Below, piece by piece: positions 9,793 through 51,085 of a DNA stretch of 64,000 bases (positions are counted from its first letter, which is position 1; each line of letters begins with the position of its first letter). The position numbers and the translations under genes are program-made. The stretch is from a virus. The stretch lies in IMG/VR virus record IMGVR_UViG_3300034198_017445, positions 10,335 to 74,334 of that record. The stretch is one strand, 5' to 3'. The notes beneath the pieces were generated by a model. The model was not told the DNA's origin, did not search any database, and saw only the letters and a list, made by a program, of their open reading frames with translations.

Positions 9793-10535
9793 TGCTGTTC
9801 TCCGTTGGTTCGGTTGTTCGACCAAACAACGAGGCGGTTGCTTCGATCTCGATCACTCCGGTGTACGGTATGGATCGGGTGATGTCGTACTACATTGAGC
9901 GTTGGGACGTTACTGGTCGCATCGTCAATTGGCCGATAGCGACTCAGGATGTGACGACGGCTGCTCTTGCTCGGTTGAAAGCGGATATGCTTCAACAAAA
10001 CGTCGACGTGAAGTTCTTGGCTGACGATGGGAAGGAGACCGCTTTCAATCTTCGCGCATCGCAATGCTTGCTTGGTCCGTATGTCACTGAGTATTCATTT
10101 CCAAATTCCCAGGAGGAAGTCTACGCGACTGGTCAGTTGTATCGCGTGCTGTACGAAGCAAGGTGCATGCCTAGTGGGAACGCTTCGAACCTACTTGAGT
10201 TTAGCGAAACGGTTAGCTTGACTCAGGTTGGCGGTCGCCACATGGTGTACGTTGGTGGGTCTGTCAATTTGCCGGAACGCCAGACTGGAATCCAAAACAA
10301 GACGTGGATGTACTCTCAGTCTGGTAGTGCCGTTGGGTTGACTGCGTATCCGTTTATCCCAAATGCGATATGGCCATTTGCCCTAACAAATCCAGATGGG
10401 GTGTCGCAGTCGCTTGTGAGTCCTGTTGTGGTTGGAAACACTCCGGGGCTGGATACGGAGTTTCGGATATCGTGGGAGTACCAATTTGAGTGGGCGTATC
10501 CATTGCGTGGGTTGCCTCACAGGAGAACTATTTGA
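9792..10535 (+). CDS. Tail tip/distal tail protein
   Basis: Coupled directly after the tape measure gene. Confidence 0.6.
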   Translation: MLFSVGSVVRPNNEAVASISITPVYGMDRVMSYYIERWDVTGRIVNWPIATQDVTTAALARLKADMLQQNVDVKFLADDGKETAFNLRASQCLLGPYVTEYSFPNSQEEVYATGQLYRVLYEARCMPSGNASNLLEFSETVSLTQVGGRHMVYVGGSVNLPERQTGIQNKTWMYSQSGSAVGLTAYPFIPNAIWPFALTNPDGVSQSLVSPVVVGNTPGLDTEFRISWEYQFEWAYPLRGLPHRRTI

Positions 10536-29732: not shown

Positions 29733-30041
29733 GTGAAGACTACTATTTTGATTGGCGTGTTGTTGGCAGCGGTTCGGATTTGGCTTGGGTTTAACATCGA
29801 GCCTGAATCGTTTCGCTGGGACCAAGTCTTCAAGGACGCGGCGCACTTGTTCATGGGTGGTCTTGCTGTCGCGTGGTGGTTCAATAGGTATGAGCTGACC
29901 GACGAAGACTGGGACGATACCGAGGACAACAGTGCTCTGTTTGAGGCGCTGACGTGGTGTCTTTTGCAACCGTGGCAATGGTGGTTGTTTTGGTCGCTTA
30001 ACGCGATTGAGGTTGCTGTCGCTGTCCTGAGTCGAATCTAG
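29733..30041 (+). CDS. Small membrane protein
   Basis: Hydrophobic segments; GAGG RBS. Confidence 0.55.
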   Translation: MKTTILIGVLLAAVRIWLGFNIEPESFRWDQVFKDAAHLFMGGLAVAWWFNRYELTDEDWDDTEDNSALFEALTWCLLQPWQWWLFWSLNAIEVAVAVLSRI

Positions 30042-30343
30042 CTTGCTCAGCGGCTTTGTTGCGGAGATGGGTCGGTTACGCATGCCTGCTCGGAGGCGTT
30101 GTTTCTGAGGCGATAGACGCGCGTTCGCTTCGTGCCTGTCCTGAGGCTTTGTATCTGGAATAGAAGCCGCTAGTGAACCTGCCTGGAGGTTTTGTTTCCT
30201 TGACGGAATTGAGTCTGGCTTATTGCCTATCAAGCGGCGTAATTGCTTGGAGTGCGATCCATTTGAGCCTGCCATGAGGCTTTGTTTCGTGGACAGGAAT
30301 TCAGCATGATACAATGCCTGCCTAGCGGCTTTGTTGCTGGGAT
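30041..30343 (+). CRISPR. Orphan structure-conserved CRISPR-like array B (7 units)
   Basis: 28-nt units at 30041, 30084, 30134, 30177, 30225, 30267, 30316; consensus GCCTG-N6-GGC-TTTGTT-N6'-NN; spacers 14-22 nt. Confidence 0.8.
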
Positions 30344-40099: not shown

Positions 40100-40647
40100 C
40101 GAAGCGCTCGAAAAAGCATAAACAAAAAGCCGGACTGTCACCTGCTCTAGAACATACGACGGGCGGAAATCGCGAACCGCTTGAGTCACGTAAGAGCCAG
40201 ATAGCGACAGGCGTTAAACCCCAAACTGAGGATGAGGCGTATCGGGCATTCTGGCCAGAGTTTGCTCCAGGCATGGAGAAAATAGCCGAGTCAACAGGGA
40301 GGGGTGGAGCGTATCAACGTATGTCGGATATGGCACTGGCAATCCGTGCCGTGTCCGACTCGTTTCCAGTTCCTCGGGCAGCGGTGGAGCGTTTGGTGTT
40401 CGATGTCATTCGGCAATCGACCGATCCTTCGCTTACCCTGGAACAGAGGCAGCGGTCGCAGAAACTGCTGTCTCGCATGATCGAACGGAACGCGGCACCG
40501 AAGGGGTTGCCCGACCAACTGCAAACCTTGCCTGGGCAAGTACTCTCTATTCAGCAGGTGCTCGACGTGATCGATGTGGACGATAACGATATCGACCTGC
40601 GGGACTTCAAACCGGCAATCGGATCCGATGAGGATTATGCCGAATGA
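40096..40647 (+). CDS. Putative terminase small subunit
   Basis: Coupled directly upstream of the large subunit. Confidence 0.5.
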   Translation: MTKRSKKHKQKAGLSPALEHTTGGNREPLESRKSQIATGVKPQTEDEAYRAFWPEFAPGMEKIAESTGRGGAYQRMSDMALAIRAVSDSFPVPRAAVERLVFDVIRQSTDPSLTLEQRQRSQKLLSRMIERNAAPKGLPDQLQTLPGQVLSIQQVLDVIDVDDNDIDLRDFKPAIGSDEDYAE

Positions 40648-42167
40648 CTGCGGTCGCTGGCTGGACGGATCAGTTCGGATCGGAAAGCGTACATTCGCAC
40701 GAGCGCCAAAGTAACGCAGCCAGGGAGTTGTATCTGGACGCACAGGCGATGCGTTCTCCGTTGTTGCTGGCTGAACGGTTTTCTCGTGGCGAGTGGAAGC
40801 GTGCGCGGCACTTGCAGTTCATCGACTGGGAATTCAGAAATCTGCTGAAGTCTCGGGATATCGACCTGCTGATCATCAAATGCCCTGTCCGTCACGGAAA
40901 GAGCCAGTATCTAGCGCGGTGGGCTCCTGCTTGGTACCTGCTCCGGAATCCGCACAAACGGGTCATGATCTGTACCGCGACGGCTTCGCTGGCATCGTCT
41001 CACTCGCGTTGGGTGCGGGACAAGTTCCATGAGTTGGCTTCGCTCATGCAAATGAAGGGCGTTGATCCTACGCATGCTTCTGTGAAGGACTGGGGTATCG
41101 ACATTCCTGGCGGGGGTGGTGCGTTGGCTGCAGGTGTCGGCACGTCCATCGTCGGCTTCGGCGCGAATTTGCTGATCATCGACGATTACCTGAAAGACGC
41201 AAAATCGGCGTTCTCTCCAAAGATCCGGGACGACCAATGGGACTGGTTTCTGTCGACCAGTTCGACGCGGTTGGAGCCTGGGGGGAAGTTAATTCTTCTC
41301 TGTACTGCTTGGCATTCGGACGATCTCATCGGTCGCATCTTGAAACACAGAAAAGAGCTAGATATGCGGGTGCGTTGCGTCACTCTGCAGGCGTTGCGTG
41401 ATTCGTCGTATGGCGTTCACGATCCTTTGTGTCGGCAGGATGGCGAGGCGCTTTGGCCTGAGAGATGGCCTGTCGAGGTCATGGAGCGTCGGAAGCGCCA
41501 GGCTGGTATGTGGTGGCACTCGATCTACCAGGGAACGCCAAAGGGGACGGGGCTTTCATCCTGGCCTGATGCGTACTTCTCGAATATTTGGGCGGATGAC
41601 GACGAGTGGCCTAGTCCGGAGGAAGGCGTTCTGTCGGCTTCATTCCTCGATCCATCGAAGGGGAAGAATTCGAAAGTCGGGGATTATTCCGCGATCGTGT
41701 CTGTGGTTTACGCAAAGGGTAAGCTGTGGGTGGATTCCTCGATCGATCGTCGATCCGTGCAGGTGATGGTTCGGGAGTGGATGGAGTTCAACCGGGCGCG
41801 TCGTATCGCTTTCCAGGGGGTCGAGGGTAATGCGTGGCAGGATTTGCTCGCTGAGGACTACGTCGAGGAGTGTTTGCGGCACGGGTATCAAATCGATCCT
41901 CCTGAATGCGTGATTCACACGACGAACAAAAACCTGCGGATCGAAAAGATCGGGAAGTGGTTGGACGGTCGGTTGCTTCGGTTTCGTCGGACGGCTTCGA
42001 ACGAGTTGCTCCTTGCCCAGATGCGGGAGTTTCCGTTCGGGCAATACGACGACGGTCCGGACGGTCTGGAGGCTGCGATCGCGCTGCTGTGTCGATCTGT
42101 CGATGCGTTGTCGGATGCTCACGACATCGAGGAGAGCGATGCGACGGTTGGTACCAGACCGCTATGA
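40644..42167 (+). CDS. terL: Terminase large subunit
   Basis: PVRHGKS, LLIIDD, TAWH..D, FLDPS..GDYSA, DDGPD. Confidence 0.92.
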   Translation: MTAVAGWTDQFGSESVHSHERQSNAARELYLDAQAMRSPLLLAERFSRGEWKRARHLQFIDWEFRNLLKSRDIDLLIIKCPVRHGKSQYLARWAPAWYLLRNPHKRVMICTATASLASSHSRWVRDKFHELASLMQMKGVDPTHASVKDWGIDIPGGGGALAAGVGTSIVGFGANLLIIDDYLKDAKSAFSPKIRDDQWDWFLSTSSTRLEPGGKLILLCTAWHSDDLIGRILKHRKELDMRVRCVTLQALRDSSYGVHDPLCRQDGEALWPERWPVEVMERRKRQAGMWWHSIYQGTPKGTGLSSWPDAYFSNIWADDDEWPSPEEGVLSASFLDPSKGKNSKVGDYSAIVSVVYAKGKLWVDSSIDRRSVQVMVREWMEFNRARRIAFQGVEGNAWQDLLAEDYVEECLRHGYQIDPPECVIHTTNKNLRIEKIGKWLDGRLLRFRRTASNELLLAQMREFPFGQYDDGPDGLEAAIALLCRSVDALSDAHDIEESDATVGTRPL

Positions 42168-43397: not shown

Positions 43398-43450
43398 CGG
43401 GCTGGCTGGTTCGGTCGCTGAAAAGATTCCCCAGAAATGACCTTATTTTT

Positions 43451-43555
43451 GTATTTACGGTATTGACGCTAAGTGTTTGGTCGTTAAGATCAATGCATGC
43501 GGACGACGGGGTGTCGGCTGCGGGGTTCGAAGTGAAACGGGAGACGTTGAAAATG
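43451..43555 (+). promoter_or_regulatory. Sigma70-type promoter/leader module, copy 1
   Basis: TTGACG (43463)-N16-TAAGAT (43485); similar to 49404-49505. Confidence 0.75.
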
Positions 43556-44467
43556 ACTGCTGCAAAAAAAGAAGAATTGGCTCCAACGGTCTACCGCACA
43601 AGCGGCACGAAAAATCGAGCGATTGCTCAGTTTGTCACGATCGAAGCGGCAAACGCTTACGTTGCAGAATTGATTGCCGGAGGCCAATCAAACGAGTTTT
43701 TGATAAAGATGGCCGTTCGCAATCCAATCAAAAAGGCTTACACCAAGCGAGGTGTTTGGAGAGAAAGCGGAGTTCGGCAGGTTAATCGATAATGTTGCTG
43801 TACTGCGAACGGATGGAATGTCGCCTGGATAGGTGGGTTTCGAAACGCGGGGTGCGATATGGCAAGCGATATGGGTGCTCTCTCTGAAAAGTGCAAGCGA
43901 GCACTTCGGAGCCGAGCGTGGAAGATGACCACGAAAGAACGTCAGGCTTTGTTGAAGGCTGCGGACGAAGCGGCTGGCATTTGGATCGTGTTTCGCAAAG
44001 GGAAGGCGCTGAATCGGGCGTATGGCTTTGAGTGCCATCCTGTAGCGTTCTCGGTTCCAAATGGTCACATCATCATGGGTCGCGACGGAGTTGCGGTTCT
44101 GGAAAAAGTTTAGAAAGTCGCGCCCTGTAATCGGCTGGGCGTGGCCTGGGTATGTGCGGTGGTTGGTTTGGTTGGTTTCAAAACGGGAGATTCTGTGATG
44201 CGTGCTAATACTTTGGGTGAGTTGCTTGAGGCTGTTGAGGAGTTGATCGAGGCTCATGGTGCGGACGTCGAGGTTCGCATGGCGACGCAGCCAAACTATC
44301 CGTTCGAGTGGTCGATCGGTGGCGTGGTCGCTGTCGATCCGAGCGAATCGGACGAGGACGACGATGAAGGCTCGGATGCTCCCTCGGGAGATGGCGAGGT
44401 CATCGTCTACATCCTGGAGGGTTCCCAGCTCGGGTACGCTTCCAAGCGGCTGTGGGACGAGCAGTAG
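43553..44467 (+). other. Three small early CDSs (43553-43792, 43859-44113, 44198-44467)
   Basis: AACGGGAG precedes two of them; downstream of the sigma70-type promoter. Confidence 0.6.
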
Positions 44468-44548
44468 GCGTTGGTGTCAAGTTTGCAGTCGCGTCGCGTT
44501 GGCGCGGCTGCTGTGGGGGTTGGTTGGTTTCAAACGGGAGACGGTTCT

Positions 44549-45280
44549 ATGTCGGTTAAGAACAGGGCTGCGGTTGTGTTGTACGAGTCGATGGTCGCTT
44601 CGATCCACGACATGCTTGCTGATCTCAACGAGGCTGCGGGAAACTTTCCTGCTCCGGACGGAGATGTGATTCCGAACGGTGACTATGGCGATCTTGGCAA
44701 TGTCGCCGAGGTTCATCGGTTGCTTGGTGAGGCGATGGGGTTCATCAAGTCGTATCGACCGGTGGGGGCTGCGGCGCGTGGTGCTCCGTGCGACGACAAC
44801 GCGTATCTGTTCCGTGCGCCTGTCAACGCTGATAAGGGTCGCATGATTTGGGTGCGAGGCGATGAAAACTACGACTGGGTTCTTCGGGAGTTCGTTCGCG
44901 TCGATTGTGCTGGTCGGTTCGTTTGCGTCGACGCTGAGATTCGCACTGTGCGTGTCTTCTGGAACTGCGGTCTGATCTGGGATGGAACCATGCCTGTCGA
45001 GAAGGATGTCGTGTCGGAAGTGATGGATCGTGGTCCGTGCGACGACAACGATGCGGAGTTTCGAGTTCCGGTTGATTCGGACCGTGGTCGCATGGTCTGG
45101 GTCAAGGACGTTGGCTCGCGATGGTTCCGTCGCGAATTTATTTCTAAATCCGGAGGTAGGTTTTTGTGCAAGGAAAGCAGTGCTCCTTTGGGCTATGTTA
45201 GCTGGGATGTAGCAAATATCAGGGTCGATTCCAAGCCTGTCGAAAAGGCTGATCTTGGAACAATTCGCGTCATCACCTGA
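44549..45280 (+). CDS. Hypothetical protein with a tandem internal domain repeat
   Basis: Two copies of RG(A)PCDDN..FR.PV..D.GRM.WV. Confidence 0.65.
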   Translation: MSVKNRAAVVLYESMVASIHDMLADLNEAAGNFPAPDGDVIPNGDYGDLGNVAEVHRLLGEAMGFIKSYRPVGAAARGAPCDDNAYLFRAPVNADKGRMIWVRGDENYDWVLREFVRVDCAGRFVCVDAEIRTVRVFWNCGLIWDGTMPVEKDVVSEVMDRGPCDDNDAEFRVPVDSDRGRMVWVKDVGSRWFRREFISKSGGRFLCKESSAPLGYVSWDVANIRVDSKPVEKADLGTIRVIT

Positions 45281-45347
45281 GACGGTTCTCGGTTGGCGTC
45301 GGCTATGTAGGTGGTGTTCTTGTTTGTCTTTCAGTCGGGGGCGTGCC

Positions 45348-45965
45348 GTGAGTGCAAATCAAAAGTTATCGATGGATGAGGCGTGGGTGCTGATTTCGAA
45401 GTTGCTGCCAAACGCGATTGCAATGCATCCTTATGGCAGGGGGGCGACGGTTCATTTTCGAGATGGTTCGCCTACTCAGGTGTTGAACTGCTTGGTCGAC
45501 TGGAAGGCTGGAAACGGAAGTGTCGTGTCGTGGTATTCTCCTCACAATTGGCGTGGCGCGATCGCTTCCGATGTTCGAGGCGATAATCCTCCGATTTGCC
45601 GGTATCGTGGTTCCGTAAGTAGTCCGTGGGAGTACGGGTTTCTTCGGGGGTGTGATCCAGAGACTTCGCATCATTACTACTGCGGTGGTACGTTACGGTT
45701 GCATTGCGAAGTGATCGATGAGCCAAAACAGGAAGCGGTCGCCGATGCTACTGTTCGTGTTCCTGATTTACTGCATGGCTGGCGAGAACCTACATCGAGC
45801 GACGCTGGTCGAACCGTGTTCGTTCGTGATCATGCTGGGGTAAAGTGGACACACCGAGTGCTCGCTAGGGTTGAAGGAAAAAAAGTGTTTTGGTGCGAAC
45901 CGAACGACGGAGTTGGTGAGGTCGACTGGGCTCATGCTTTGATCGTCGATGACGTCGTGTTCTAG
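45348..45965 (+). CDS. Hypothetical protein with related repeat domains
   Basis: WR.....D.GR.V.VRD...W pattern; follows a promoter motif. Confidence 0.6.
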   Translation: MSANQKLSMDEAWVLISKLLPNAIAMHPYGRGATVHFRDGSPTQVLNCLVDWKAGNGSVVSWYSPHNWRGAIASDVRGDNPPICRYRGSVSSPWEYGFLRGCDPETSHHYYCGGTLRLHCEVIDEPKQEAVADATVRVPDLLHGWREPTSSDAGRTVFVRDHAGVKWTHRVLARVEGKKVFWCEPNDGVGEVDWAHALIVDDVVF

Positions 45966-46009
45966 TTTGCTGTGGTGTTGTGTTCGTGGTTCAAGCGGGA
46001 GATTGAAAG

Positions 46010-47758
46010 TTGAGCGTTAAAAACTGGGTCTATGGTGGTAAGGTTCCTACGCCACAAGAGGCTGTCGATGAGGCGATCTTCACGGCGCACAAGTATCGAA
46101 ACAAGCTGTGTGAGTTGGAGCTGGAAAAACGGAAGCGGCACTACGATTTGTTGCGTCGGCTTGCTCCTGAGTTTGTTGCTGCTGAGGAAACGGTCGCGAC
46201 GTTGGAGGCGGCGCTGGGTGCCTGTCGCGAAAAGATCCAAGCGGAACGGGTGAAGCAGCGGACGAAAACTCCGACTGGGTGCAAGACCTGGATTGCCGAA
46301 AGTGCGGACATCAAATCGCGGTTAAAAGATGCGCGTGCAGTCTTGAAGGCTGCGAAGCATGCGGCTTACGATGATCCTGCTGTCAAGGCTGCGATGGATG
46401 CGAACAGCGAGCAGCATAAATCCGAGTGTGCTCAAGCCAAGCAGGAGTCCGGGCTGTACTGGGGGACCGAAGCGGTGATCCGTGATTCGTGTCGATCGTT
46501 TGCGAGTGGTGCTCCACCGAAGTTTGCGCGGTATGAAGGGCGCGGTCAGTTGGCTGTCCAAGTCCAAGGCGGGATGGATTGTTCCAAGGCGATCGATGAG
46601 AACACGTTGGTCTACATCGTTGGCGAGGGTCGGAAGCGAACGGCAAAGGTTCGCATTGCTTCGGACGGTGGGCGACCGGTGTTCGCGGATCTACCGATCG
46701 TGTTCCATCGGGACTTGCCTGACGGCGCTATCAAGTGGGCGTTCCTGCAGAAGCGGATGCGTGCGAACAAACCGAAGTACAGCTTGCGTCTTGCGATCGA
46801 CGTTGCTGATCCTGTCGATGTGCAGGTTCCTCCGGGTGAGGTTGCGATTCACGTCGGCTGGCGAAAGCACGGGGACGGATTAAAGGTCGTGACTTGGCTC
46901 GGGAGCGACGGCGAGAAAGGTTCGCTCGTGCTTCCGGCTTCTCATTGCGAGGACTATCTCAAGCTGGACAAAATCAAGTCGGAGCGTGACATCGAATTCG
47001 GAAAGGCGATTGATCATTTGCGTGGGTGGCTGGAGTGTCGTGGCGATGTGCCTGAGTTCTTGGAGGAGGTTCGATCGCACTTGCATGCGTGGAAGTCTCA
47101 GAAGCGGTTGGCTGCTCTCGTGGTGGCTTGGCGCGATGCTCGCTTCGATCCGTGGGATATTGATATTTTCGAGTACCTGGAGGCGTGGCGAAAGAAGGAC
47201 AAGCATGCATGGCAGCACGATGCTCGGTTGCGGGAGCGAATCGCTGGTCGTCGCAAAACGATCTACCAGACGTTTCTGTGTGGTCTTGCTCGGAGGTACG
47301 GAGTGGCGATCGTTGCTCCGATCGATGCGAAGGAGTTGACCGAAAACAGCGAGCCAGAAGACTTGACGGCGGATCCAACGTTGCAGCATCGGCGTGCGAA
47401 GTGGGCTGCTGTATCGACGCTGATTCAGTACGCTCGCGAAAAATGGCCTGAACGCTGCATCGAAGTGGACGGTGCGAACATGAGTCGCCAGTGCATGCGG
47501 TGCGGTCACGTCAACGAACCGCAAGGCAAGCGGGTGCAGTGCCATGGTTGCGGTGCTACTTGGGATGTGGACATCAACGCGGCTACGGTTATGCTCGAAC
47601 GTGGTCAGGCTGCGGCGCGTGATGGTGCTCTTGATGCGTTGGTTGAAGCGAAGGAAAAGAAAGCCGAGGCTGCTCGCGAGAAACTTGCAAAGATGATACA
47701 GGCGCGGCGTGATGCTTCTGCTCGCAAGCGTGCTGAGATGGAGGGCAGCGAGGCTTAG
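46010..47758 (+). CDS. Cas12m (type V-M)/TnpB-like RNA-guided protein, RuvC probably inactive
   Basis: AHKYRNKLCELE, long coiled coil, GLYWGT, PPKFARYEGRGQLAVQVQGG; RuvC-I VAIHVGWR (His for Asp); no Glu at RuvC-II (IVAPID); Zn finger CMRC/CHGC; RuvC-III DVDINAA. Confidence 0.85.
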   Translation: MSVKNWVYGGKVPTPQEAVDEAIFTAHKYRNKLCELELEKRKRHYDLLRRLAPEFVAAEETVATLEAALGACREKIQAERVKQRTKTPTGCKTWIAESADIKSRLKDARAVLKAAKHAAYDDPAVKAAMDANSEQHKSECAQAKQESGLYWGTEAVIRDSCRSFASGAPPKFARYEGRGQLAVQVQGGMDCSKAIDENTLVYIVGEGRKRTAKVRIASDGGRPVFADLPIVFHRDLPDGAIKWAFLQKRMRANKPKYSLRLAIDVADPVDVQVPPGEVAIHVGWRKHGDGLKVVTWLGSDGEKGSLVLPASHCEDYLKLDKIKSERDIEFGKAIDHLRGWLECRGDVPEFLEEVRSHLHAWKSQKRLAALVVAWRDARFDPWDIDIFEYLEAWRKKDKHAWQHDARLRERIAGRRKTIYQTFLCGLARRYGVAIVAPIDAKELTENSEPEDLTADPTLQHRRAKWAAVSTLIQYAREKWPERCIEVDGANMSRQCMRCGHVNEPQGKRVQCHGCGATWDVDINAATVMLERGQAAARDGALDALVEAKEKKAEAAREKLAKMIQARRDASARKRAEMEGSEA

Positions 47759-47768
47759 GGTATGGTTC

Positions 47769-49351
47769 TCCTGCTCATGGGAGTTGTTCATGAGATAATG
47801 ATCTGGAATATGCTAATGCCTATCAATCGGCTTTGTTGCTTGAAGACGAACTATGTGGCTGATCGGTGCCATCGTTACCGAAAATATGGGTCTGTTGCGT
47901 TATCGCCAATCGCGAGGCTTTGTTTCGCTGATATCGATGCAGTTCACCGCCTGCTCGGAGGCTTTGTTTTCGAGATACAACGACGTGGTTGCTTTTGATT
48001 TTATGCCTGCTAGGTGGCATCGTTACATTGGCTCGAACTTGAATTTCATTCATTGCGTGCGATGGGGCATCATTCCATTGACATACCCGTAAGCCTGCTC
48101 GGAGGCGTTATATCGGAGACAAAAAGCATACGGGGAGACTATTTGGACTGCGATTGATTTGCCTGTCGTGAGGCGTCGTATCGCGAAAACGAGATTGATC
48201 ACATGATTCCGCCTGCGGACCGGCTTCGTTGGTCCGGCGCAAGGACATCGTTGCCTGCTCAGAGGCATTGTGTCTGAGACGTTCGCGAGAACTTCGATCT
48301 GTCGCCTGCCATGAGGCTTTGTGTCATGGACGGAGTCCATAATGCCCGAAAGTGAAACCAAAAACATACCGATCAGCTCGGTCACAAATGCTCTGTGGGA
48401 GTGCCGTGATTGCGGCTGCGAGTCGAGCGATGTGTACTGGTTCAGTTGTTTGGGTGCGAGGCTCAAGAAGCCGAGGTGCGCGTGCTGCCATGAGAAGGCG
48501 GTCGTCTCTGGTTCGTCTGTTTACGAAGAAGGGACTATTGAAATGTCTGGTTGCCAGCAACGGGTGTACGGTAGGCATGTTCGGGGAATCTACTTGTTTC
48601 GGGAGGAGAAGTAACTTGCTTGTGCCTGTTCGGAGGCATCGTATCCGTGACGACCACTGTTTTACCCGCCTGCGCTGGGGCGTCGTTTCGGTGAGTGTGA
48701 CTACACAATCTCCTGCGCGGTGGAGTTGTAACCGTGGCCAGATTAGCGATTTTGCTTTAAGCCTGCATGGAGGCATCGTATCTATGACCCCATTGTGCCG
48801 TGTTCATTGCCTGCTCGGAGGCGTCGTATCCGAGATGAAACATTTGCTATCTCGTTTTCATTGCCTACCGTGAGGCGTTGTTTCATGGATCCGACCATAG
48901 CTTCCGGCGTGGCTTTGTAGCGTCGATGGCCTGATTGCGTGCGCCTGCTTGGAGGCTTTGTTTCCTTGGCTCAATACGATCAGTGAGAATTTTGCCTGCT
49001 CAGTGGCGTTGTAACTGCGATCCAGGATTTGGTTGGCGTATCGCCTGCTTGGAGGCTTCGTTTCCTGAACATGATGCATCGCTGCTCAGTGCCTGCTCAG
49101 CGGCTTTGTTGCTGGGATGAAAAGTCACTTTGCCATCTATCGCCTGCGGACCGGCGTGGCTGGTTCGACGTCAGCCATTTTTTGTAATCGTCACGAAACT
49201 GTTTCATGACGGTTTTGTCCTGCGCATCGGACTTGTTGGTGCGACAACGCGGAAAATGTGGAAAGTATTGATGGTGCTCGGATGAAATTGGAATCGTCAC
49301 GAAACTATTCTGTGACGTGTTTTGCCTGCTCGGAGGCTTTGTATCCGTGAC
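47769..49351 (+). CRISPR. Structure-conserved CRISPR-like array A (26 units, split by a small ORF)
   Basis: 28-nt units at 47769, 47818, 47857, 47905, 47949, 48005, 48055, 48093, 48161, 48211, 48253, 48304, 48624, 48668, 48711, 48761, 48809, 48863, 48900, 48943, 48994, 49043, 49091, 49142, 49218, 49324; covarying stem and pseudoknot. Confidence 0.85.
48342..48614 (+). CDS. Small Cys-rich zinc-finger-like protein embedded in array A
   Basis: GGAG RBS; CRDC...CACC; fills the gap between units 12 and 13. Confidence 0.6.
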   Translation: MPESETKNIPISSVTNALWECRDCGCESSDVYWFSCLGARLKKPRCACCHEKAVVSGSSVYEEGTIEMSGCQQRVYGRHVRGIYLFREEK

Positions 49352-49403
49352 AGGTAGCTCTAGCAGACCGCCAAATTCGAGCGATAAAATACTCCAAGTT
49401 TCC

Positions 49404-49505
49404 GTATTTACTGTATTGACGCGAAGTGTCCGGTCGTTAACATGGACACATGCGAACGACGGGGTGTCGAACGCGGGGCTGGTTCAAACGGGAGACTGGA
49501 AAATG
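49404..49505 (+). promoter_or_regulatory. Sigma70-type promoter/leader module, copy 2
   Basis: TTGACG (49416)-N16-TAACAT (49438); GACGGGGTGTCG; AACGGGAG. Confidence 0.75.
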
Positions 49506-50762
49506 CGTTACTCAAAAAGTGGATTGTTCGAGTTGTGGCGAAATGTTGTCATTGAGGGCGATTGCGTCACGCCATCCGTTTGCCGATCTTTTCTGGTTCG
49601 GATTTGTGCGACATCGGAAGATGCCAAGAAAGCACTTGCTGAGTGCGATCCTCGGGATGACATCGGTATCGTTGCTCCGAAGGCTTATGTCGAACGGCAC
49701 AGGAAGTTGTTTCTCCGCAAGCAAGCGAGGCTGGCTGCGAGCAGTGCTGTTGATGTTCCATTCTAGTGCGATGGTTGGTCTTGCTCTCCTGCGCTTTGCA
49801 GGGGAGCGTTGTGGTGGTTAGGAAACGGGAGTCTCTGAAATGTTGATCGAAGAAGTTCAGGCTGATCTTGGCGATCTGTTGCGTGATGTGGTTGCCATTC
49901 GCGAGGACATGGAGAACGCTGAGTGCTGCGAGGTAAAAAGCGATCTGTGCGAGAACTTGCGATCGGCGTTGCTGAAGGTTTCTGATCTGAAGGTCGAGCT
50001 GCAGAAGTTTGTTCGCAAGGCTGAGAAGTGCTCGGGGTGATTGGTTGTTTTTAAACGGGAGGTCTGTGATGTTGGAAGCTGGCAAGTTCTATCGGAACAA
50101 TAACGGAAAGCGGATCCTGATCGGCGGTCGGATCAAGCACTACTCGGAGTTCAATTCGTTCGTGTGGTCGGTTTCCGGCGACTGGTACGACGAGGCGACC
50201 GGTCGGTTTGTGCTGTGCACTCGGAGGTACTGCGGTTTCAGGTTGCCGGTGGAGTTCACTGGTTCCTGTATCGAAAACCATGAGGCTGTCGGAGACATGG
50301 ACGATGCGGTCGTCGTCGATGAGCCATGCAGTTCCGATCGCGTTCTTGCTGACCAAGCAAAAGGAAGGACTGTTCGCCATGAAGGATAACGAGGCTACTG
50401 TTGTTGTGCTCAAAAACGGCTTGCGAGTCGCTAACTTCTCAAGCCCACATTCGTTCACGTTCACCGATGGTTCGGTGCTTGAAGCCTGCTCTGCAAAGCG
50501 TGCGAAGAAGTTGATGCTTGAACACGTCGAGGTTGAGCACAAGATGCAGCGCTGGACGGACATCGAGTTGAAGTTCGAAATGTCTGAGCCTGTCATGCTG
50601 GAGGTGCTCGCGTTGATCCAGCGGTCGGACATCGACATCGTTCTGGTTCCGTTGCCTGTTCTTGAGTTGGTTCGTGAGAAGGGCTGGACGACGAAGATTC
50701 GCGGCATTCGCGTCGCTGATCGGGTCACGAAAACGATCCATTGTGATCGCTTCTGTTTGTAA
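49503..50762 (+). other. Four small early CDSs (49503-49766, 49840-50040, 50069-50389, 50379-50762)
   Basis: AACGGGAG or AAGGA upstream of each start. Confidence 0.6.
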
Positions 50763-50776
50763 TGGTGGGTTGATCT

Positions 50777-51085
50777 ATGAGCTGCGAGTCTTGTGGGCGT
50801 GAGGTCAAATACTACGGGCATTTGCATGGTGGCGTGCGTTGCGCCAATTACTGCAAAGGCCAAGGTCTTATTGTGGAGGCTGATTCTGTGGCTGAGAAAG
50901 AAAAGCGTCGGATGGGTCGACCACCGACCGGTGTCCCTACAAAGGTCGCTATCGCGTTCCGGTTGGATCCCGAGGTCTATGCGTTCCTGCGGTCCGTCGA
51001 AAACGGAAAACGCACGACGTTGGTCGAGGGGGCTGTCCGTGGGTCCAAGGAGTTCCGTGCCTGGGTGAAAAGCCAAAAGGCTTAG
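50777..51085 (+). CDS. Small DNA-binding protein (Zn ribbon plus RHH/BrnA-like)
   Basis: MGRPPTGVPTKVAIAFRLDPEVYAFL. Confidence 0.65.
   Translation: MSCESCGREVKYYGHLHGGVRCANYCKGQGLIVEADSVAEKEKRRMGRPPTGVPTKVAIAFRLDPEVYAFLRSVENGKRTTLVEGAVRGSKEFRAWVKSQKA

Follow-up and report, generated by a model that had tools for sequence, protein, structure and literature searches.

The window analyzed here, a 64,000-nucleotide stretch of viral DNA (positions 10,335 to 74,334 of IMG/VR record IMGVR_UViG_3300034198_017445), is part of a phage record of 74,334 bp to which CheckV assigns a completeness of 100%. Its plus strand carries nearly all long open reading frames (ORFs) and, at 46010–47758, the single Cas12m gene of the record, a stop-free frame of 582 amino acids with a TTG start and a GGGAG Shine-Dalgarno sequence 8 nt upstream. 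Eleven nucleotides after the cas12m stop codon begins array A (47769–49351, plus strand), composed of 25 Cas12m-type CRISPR RNA (crRNA) handles of 28 nt separated by short gaps and interrupted by a 292-nt break. Six more handles of the same type form array B (30041–30343, plus strand), which is intergenic and lies 16 kb upstream of cas12m. When the complete 74-kb record was searched for Cas1 (PF01867) and Cas2 (PF09827), no match was found; Cas4 had no dedicated search. Among the sequencing runs listed as containing the sequence there was none of RNA and one of DNA, probably the source sample.

The product of the 46010–47758 ORF is a full-length Cas12m, a type V-M CRISPR effector. Among PDB chains searched with phmmer, the closest solved relative by sequence is Cas12m 23vw (E = 3.6e-45 over residues 21–532), and matches were also obtained to MmCas12m2 (8hhl/8hio, E = 8e-32), GoCas12m (8pm4, E = 4e-25), and 23vu (E = 8e-14). 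An AlphaFold2 model built from 51 relatives reached a mean predicted local distance difference test score (pLDDT) of 91.8 and a predicted template-modeling score (pTM) of 0.80. In Foldseek comparisons this model aligned over its full length (~610 columns) with a template-modeling (TM) score of 0.78 to 8hhl and 0.80 to 8pm4, versus at most 0.44 for Cas12f and TnpB. An earlier reading of the window, made from sequence only, had compared the protein with Cas12m and TnpB and proposed superposing a predicted structure on both; the comparison was apt, and the superposition places the protein with Cas12m. The model appears to fit the compact (~600 aa) bilobed Cas12m fold, with predicted WED, REC (containing a long coiled-coil), RuvC (with a helical insertion), and TNB domains.

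Pfam recognized only a Cas12f1-like TNB zinc-finger domain (PF07282, residues 465–526), whose four cysteines (C495, C498, C511, and C514; 47492–47551, plus strand) are invariant in the clade described below. His233 and Arg234 (46706–46711, plus strand) align to the WED-domain residues His269 and Arg270 of MmCas12m2, which recognize the final bases in the handle of the crRNA (PMC10442227), and are the predicted handle-reading pair of the window protein. In a 51-protein alignment of the clade, R234 is invariant and H233 is conserved in at least 90% of sequences.

We also considered whether the protein might be a TldR. TldR proteins are of TnpB size, lack the REC coiled-coil of Cas12m, and use one long omega-type guide RNA encoded next to the gene. 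They are RNA-guided and nuclease-dead, often phage-borne, and bind DNA with fixed guides (bioRxiv 10.1101/2023.11.30.569447). This identity was rejected: the window protein has 582 residues and a Cas12m fold, NCBIfam TnpB models match its C-terminal 130 residues only, far below their cut-offs, and its guide units are short, crRNA-type, and arranged in arrays.

The RuvC site and its clade

The RuvC triad was mapped by phmmer alignment to solved Cas12m chains and by an alignment of 226 proteins, and the assignments rest on both. At the RuvC-I position, His281 (motif VAIHVGWR; codon CAC, 46850–46852, plus strand) replaces the catalytic Asp. At RuvC-II, Ala436, followed by Pro, occupies the place of the catalytic Glu (motif IVAPIDAKEL; GCT, 47315–47317, plus strand), and at RuvC-III, Asp521 is retained (motif WDVDINAA; GAC, 47570–47572, plus strand). 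In the phmmer alignment H281, A436, and D521 fall on His317, Asp485, and Asp579, the residues reported to form the H-D-D site in MmCas12m2 (PMC10442227). The aligned positions of 23vw ("CRISPR-associated DNA-binding protein Cas12m"), a protein of the same length class, read D/E/D, H281 lying on the Asp of AIDLGWR and A436 on the first Glu of IVLEEF; unlike the window protein, 23vw keeps the acids at RuvC-I and RuvC-II. By these alignments the window protein is a natural H-A-D Cas12m in which two of the three cutting residues are lost. Indeed, the sequence-only reading had noted the RuvC-I His, the absence of Glu from RuvC-II, and the persistence of the RuvC-III Asp and of the zinc finger; each of these observations is borne out, and the triad does look disabled when set against the D/E/D of nuclease-type relatives. 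Asp439, the Asp of "PID" three residues beyond A436, is not a substitute for the RuvC-II Glu, because D or N at this position is also common in D-E-D relatives.

To place the substitutions in the family, relatives were collected by a word-indexed search (89 proteins) and by an HMMER scan of 1.84 billion representatives, which returned 1,212 relatives at E ≤ 1e-30; 226 of these were aligned. D-E-D triads are present in 114 of the aligned proteins, H-A-D in 32, H-S-D in 22, and H-G-D in 7, alongside other H-x-D forms; altogether 83 of the 226 combine His with a non-acidic residue and Asp or Glu. Column 281 is D in every one of the 114 D-E-D proteins and H in every one of the 83 proteins of the query group. 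Column 436 is likewise E in 114/114 and non-acidic in 83/83 (A in 34, S in 22, G in 8, and others), and column 521 is D in 114/114 and in 80/83. In a FastTree phylogeny one split, with a Shimodaira-Hasegawa-like support of 100, divides 140 D- or N-type rows from all H-type rows. Around the query, well-supported sets of 3, 22, 51, and 60 rows are nested in one another; almost all of their members are H-x-D, and the largest set includes three further-decayed ones (SSS, RAL, and RPD). Among the 51 closest relatives (39%–66% identity) H281 is invariant, and position 436 varies among small residues. We conclude from the alignments that the triad change is a trait of the clade and not a private lesion of the window protein, and that the site is fixed as His/small residue/Asp across a deep clade borne almost wholly by viruses and mobile genetic elements (MGEs).

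Gradual decay of RuvC has been described for Cas12m (PMC10691335), and the triads published for its clades are HEK/HQK, HDD, DED/NED, and DND (PMC10442227). H-A-D is not among the triad lists of PMC10442227 and PMC11013384, and H-(small)-D would represent a further step along this decay.

The close clade was found in 1 of ~185,000 species genomes, on a 14.9-kb contig of a Pirellulaceae metagenome-assembled genome (MAG) that also carries an integrase gene; this contig only hints at the host of the clade. All other known members come from metagenome or virus contigs, and GenBank phages yielded one distant relative (31% identity). Since its members adjoin terminase or integrase genes and are almost absent from bacterial genomes, the clade is a phage/MGE lineage.

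Guide units and the search for their targets

The 31 handles of arrays A and B differ from each other and follow a 28-nt consensus, GCCTGC-N-C-N-GAGGC-N-TTGTTTC-N-G-N-GAC, most of them ending in A-C or A-T. Positions 1–3 pair with 12–14 to form a 3-bp pseudoknot, and positions 6–10 pair with 22–26 to form a 5-bp stem. In this set of handles, which was partly picked by a structural filter (most were first found by a plain sequence repeat search), 93% of cells pair, versus 34%–46% when the partners are slid, and double changes are seen in seven of the eight pairs. The stems thus change by paired substitutions, which argues for selection on the fold of the handle RNA. The pairing corresponds nucleotide for nucleotide to the crRNA scaffold of PmCas12m, where −28 to −26 pair with −17 to −15 and −23 to −20 with −6 to −3 (bioRxiv 10.64898/2026.03.26.714355). 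PmCas12m is nuclease-dead, represses by binding, and has an effective guide of 17 nt; its system differs from that of the window in being bacterial and in having a canonical array and an Asn/Asp/Asp RuvC site (same preprint).

Gaps between handles have a median length of 21 nt and measure 14–28 nt in 21 of 29 cases, so the short spacers reported from the sequence are real. These lengths fit the 17-bp heteroduplex of Cas12m2 (PMC10442227). MmCas12m2 and GoCas12m are served by identical 36-nt repeats and spacers of ~36 nt; the window arrays differ from theirs in that the repeats are non-identical and, relative to a 36-nt repeat, are missing the 5′ 8 nt, which leaves 28-nt handles of Cas12m scaffold geometry with gaps of ~20 nt (9–28 nt). 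The break in array A is filled by a 97-aa ORF (48321–48614, plus strand; 90 aa from the ATG at 48342). It is Cys-rich (CxxCxC ... CxCC), starts right after a handle, ends 9 nt before the next, and has no Pfam match.

Loci of relatives provide further examples of such units. Next to one H-A-D relative (L033, 48% identity) are 14 identical 36- to 37-nt repeats that end in a handle of the window type and alternate with spacers of ~36 nt, and this array adjoins a terminase gene. Similar arrays accompany five further relatives with H-A-D, H-S-D, H-C-D, and H-M-D sites (L032, L034, L035, L053, and L001). In these relatives the same handle thus underlies ordinary CRISPR arrays, which indicates that the H-x-D clade is truly CRISPR-associated. 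The closest relatives fetched, three H-S-D proteins with 54% identity (L028–L030; OFRO01002113.1, OFQZ01001684.1, and OFRE01001168.1), carry one isolated handle 14 nt past the gene; the 1.5–3.9 kb of downstream flank of each contains no array, and the layout looks like a single fixed guide. A compressed array of 21 handles, with a period of ~48 nt and diversified stems, accompanies a D-E-D Cas12m gene of another virus in IMG/VR (30% identity to the query) and is identical in three metagenome samples (L009, 2721–4000; L011, 6751–8030; L012, 1696–2975). Hence compressed arrays are not tied to the H-x-D state.

Targets of the guides were sought in several collections. Comparison of all guides of at least 12 nt with the two strands of the 74-kb genome, over a maximum of 16 nt, gave nothing beyond chance: the only match with two or fewer mismatches over 16 nt was a single 2-mismatch hit, at chance level, and ~21 3-mismatch hits were observed where ~16 were expected. 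A blastn search of 50,697 GenBank phages with array A gave only two matches, both at E = 6, and a scan of IMG/VR for three 18-nt guide prefixes returned no match. Against the Pirellulaceae MAG and 401 Planctomycetota genomes, array A matched 30 genomes at E ≤ 0.05, with ~20 expected. We judge these matches to be chance, because the best exact ones (21–23 nt) straddle the border between handle and guide and none starts from guide base 1. The spacers of related arrays showed no cross-targets when compared with the window phage and with each other, and the L033 and L001 arrays matched nothing in GenBank phages.

Probable binding without cutting and other readings of the locus

A non-canonical RuvC triad combined with silencing by binding is a known hallmark of Cas12m (PMC10442227, PMC11013384), and D-E-D, H-D-D, and N-D-D members all bind double-stranded DNA (dsDNA) without cutting it (PMC11013384, PMC10442227). 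Since the tested members of the family behave in this way, the window Cas12m very likely also binds without cutting, and the triad is not needed for the argument. The sequence-only reading had derived binding-only activity from the disabled triad together with the short spacers. That activity stands as the best-supported reading, with support that comes mainly from family membership and not from the triad itself, intact D-E-D members being binders only as well. The purposes proposed in the same reading, repression of host defense genes or of competing elements, would be candidates, the target searches described above having yielded no protospacer. MmCas12m2 uses its His and its last Asp to hold a single Mg2+ together with the displaced strand and lacks the second metal, and conversion of its H-D-D site to D-E-D did not restore cleavage (PMC10442227). 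Processing of pre-crRNA is independent of RuvC (PMC11013384).

The window protein can be compared most directly with MmCas12m2 of Mycolicibacterium mucogenicum and with GoCas12m, both H-D-D proteins. At ~24% identity, these match it in fold, domain order, and size (~590 aa), and share with it the RuvC-I His, the RuvC-III Asp, the zinc finger, and the handle-reading His-Arg pair. Each is guided by one crRNA whose 5′ handle is a pseudoknot, has neither a trans-activating crRNA (tracrRNA) nor adaptation genes, and binds and silences without cutting. Two differences concern the protein and its carrier. The RuvC-II residue is Ala in the window protein and Asp in MmCas12m2, so that the Asp that steadies the His is missing, and the window gene is phage-borne, whereas those of MmCas12m2 and GoCas12m reside on a plasmid or chromosome. 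MvCas12m of myxophage MV-1 resembles the window system in being phage-encoded, with an adjacent array and no targets found; it lacks cas1/2/4, retains a D-E-D triad, and its array is built from one consensus repeat and eight spacers (bioRxiv 10.64898/2026.09.14.751636). The same preprint claims the first phage Cas12m; type V-M systems in prophages or viruses had been noted before, in a review (PMC11656645) and in a landfill virome study (PMC12607003).

Taken with the clade and the handles, these comparisons suggest that the window encodes a phage-borne type V-M effector of the H-small-D clade that binds, without cutting, the targets of hard-wired guides; we put the probability of this reading at roughly 0.78. 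By analogy with MmCas12m2, GoCas12m, and PmCas12m, we infer the following course of events. The cas12m gene and the downstream array would be read from the same strand, and the transcript would be cut into units, each consisting of one 28-nt pseudoknot handle and a guide of ~15–25 nt. Both the WED domain (H233/R234) and the RuvC domain of the protein would grip the handle, and the resulting ribonucleoprotein (RNP) would find dsDNA flanked by a protospacer-adjacent motif (PAM) and form an R-loop of ~17 bp. It would then stay bound to the uncut target, blocking its transcription or replication. As in MmCas12m2, H281 and D521 may hold the displaced strand via one Mg2+; a second metal site is not expected, because there is no acid at position 436. 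The guides are probably hard-wired, since the complete phage genome has neither cas1 nor cas2 and its handles vary in sequence. Because they do not match the phage itself, the guides would most likely be aimed at host genes or at competing elements.

Several points weigh against this interpretation. The structural filter used in choosing handles inflates the paired percentage, several handles have one stem mismatch, and some gaps (9, 11, and 14 nt) are too short for a 17-bp duplex. The tested Cas12m triads are D-E-D, H-D-D, and N-D-D, and H-(small)-D is not among them (PMC10442227, PMC11013384). The D485A mutant of MmCas12m2, an engineered H-A-D protein, showed lowered DNA binding and silencing (PMC10442227); a natural H-A-D protein might therefore bind more weakly unless it is compensated elsewhere. 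Finally, the searches of the phage's own genome, GenBank phages, IMG/VR (for three guides), and 401 Planctomycetota genomes gave no target, and hence no PAM, for any guide.

A bolder version of the same interpretation, which we offer tentatively, is that phages of this clade employ the nuclease-dead Cas12m for multiplex silencing, directed by a hard-wired set of ~30 short guides. During infection it could turn off numerous host genes or rival elements at once, a programmed takeover and not adaptive immunity, with each guide carrying its own diversified handle that keeps the fold. Were this so, diversification of the handles could keep repeats from recombining and conceal the array from CRISPR-finding rules, and the lost acid at RuvC-II would be the sign of a lineage given over entirely to binding.

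A disabled triad is by itself ordinary in Cas12m, the textbook binding-only CRISPR effector. What is added here is a deep clade (83 of 226 sampled proteins) fixed as His/small residue/Asp, a state equal to that of the D485A mutant that weakened MmCas12m2. Also added are the assignment of this clade to phages and MGEs, and a window phage that pairs the effector with compressed arrays which do not seem to be added to. Should natural H-A-D proteins prove to be good binders, they would reveal how Cas12m holds DNA without the His-steadying Asp and would offer compact (~580 aa) binders for CRISPR interference (CRISPRi) or base-editor use. The identity of the targets would show what the phage gains from ~30 fixed silencing guides.

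Among other explanations, the one that survives best, though it is unlikely, is that the protein regulates the phage's own genes in the manner of TldR, with guides that steer it to phage promoters and so time their expression. Fixed guides, the absence of an adaptation module, the position of the first unit 11 nt after the stop codon, and the placement of array B between phage genes would all suit such a role, as would the regulator-like layout of L028–L030, with their lone handle after the gene. The self-matches, however, do not exceed chance, and same-clade relatives carry ordinary multi-spacer arrays.

Slightly less probable still, in our view, is a RuvC pocket that is rearranged yet active, through a relocated acid or one-metal His/Asp chemistry, and that nicks DNA or cuts single-stranded DNA or RNA. 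H281 and D521 are strongly constrained, TnpB lineages offer known cases of RuvC-II rearrangement (PMC10691335), and conservation of two acids is higher in the H-x-D group than among D-E-D relatives (D455, 0.71 versus 0.19; E477, 0.95 versus 0.58). Against this, when all conserved acidic columns of the C-terminal half were scanned, only 281 and 436 switched fully between the H-x-D and D-E-D groups, and D455 falls within the loop that the model predicts with the least confidence (pLDDT ~75); the alignment points to no convincing relocated acid in the H-x-D group. Moreover, the His/Asp pair of MmCas12m2 holds its one Mg2+ for strand binding and not for catalysis (PMC10442227), and cutting is absent even from the D-E-D members of Cas12m (PMC10442227, PMC11013384).

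The least probable explanation, a functionless relic in which a dead enzyme sits beside an eroded array, could account for the non-identical repeats, the irregular gap lengths, the ORF within the array, and the mismatches in some handles, but it is at odds with the intact 582-aa frame and its confident model, the many residues invariant across 51 relatives, the paired substitutions in the handle stems, and the preservation of a similar compressed array, identical in three metagenome samples, in the other virus.

Genes and repeats around cas12m

Besides cas12m, the window contains phage-type genes for the large terminase (TerL; 40644–42167, plus strand), a helicase, a ParB-methyltransferase, and a sliding clamp. 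A Pfam scan of the neighbors of cas12m returned nothing informative. Directly upstream lie two plus-strand ORFs, 44471–45280 and 45255–45965, neither with a family match. The first contains an internal duplication, PCDDN..FR.PV..D.GRM.WV occurring twice. A search for a conserved partner gene, in which the neighboring ORFs of the window were compared with 12 related loci, gave a sole match: residues 82–139 (58 aa) of the second ORF are weakly similar (E = 1e-6) to a small ORF just upstream of cas12m in L028–L030. Downstream, a 102-aa ORF (50777–51085, plus strand) has a weak BrnA-antitoxin-like match (E = 9e-4) that is below the cut-off.

An 80-nt stretch is present in two copies, at 43446–43525 and 49399–49478, which are 81% alike and flank a block of ~6 kb containing two unknown genes, cas12m, and array A; a promoter-like site (49416–49443) lies inside the second copy. 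A recurring motif, GGTTGGTTTCAAACGGGAG, and its variants occur at 44163–44188, 44515–44540, and 50036–50061, and near 45990, upstream of cas12m. Motifs of this type directly precede several start codons and look like a shared leader and ribosome-site module of the phage.

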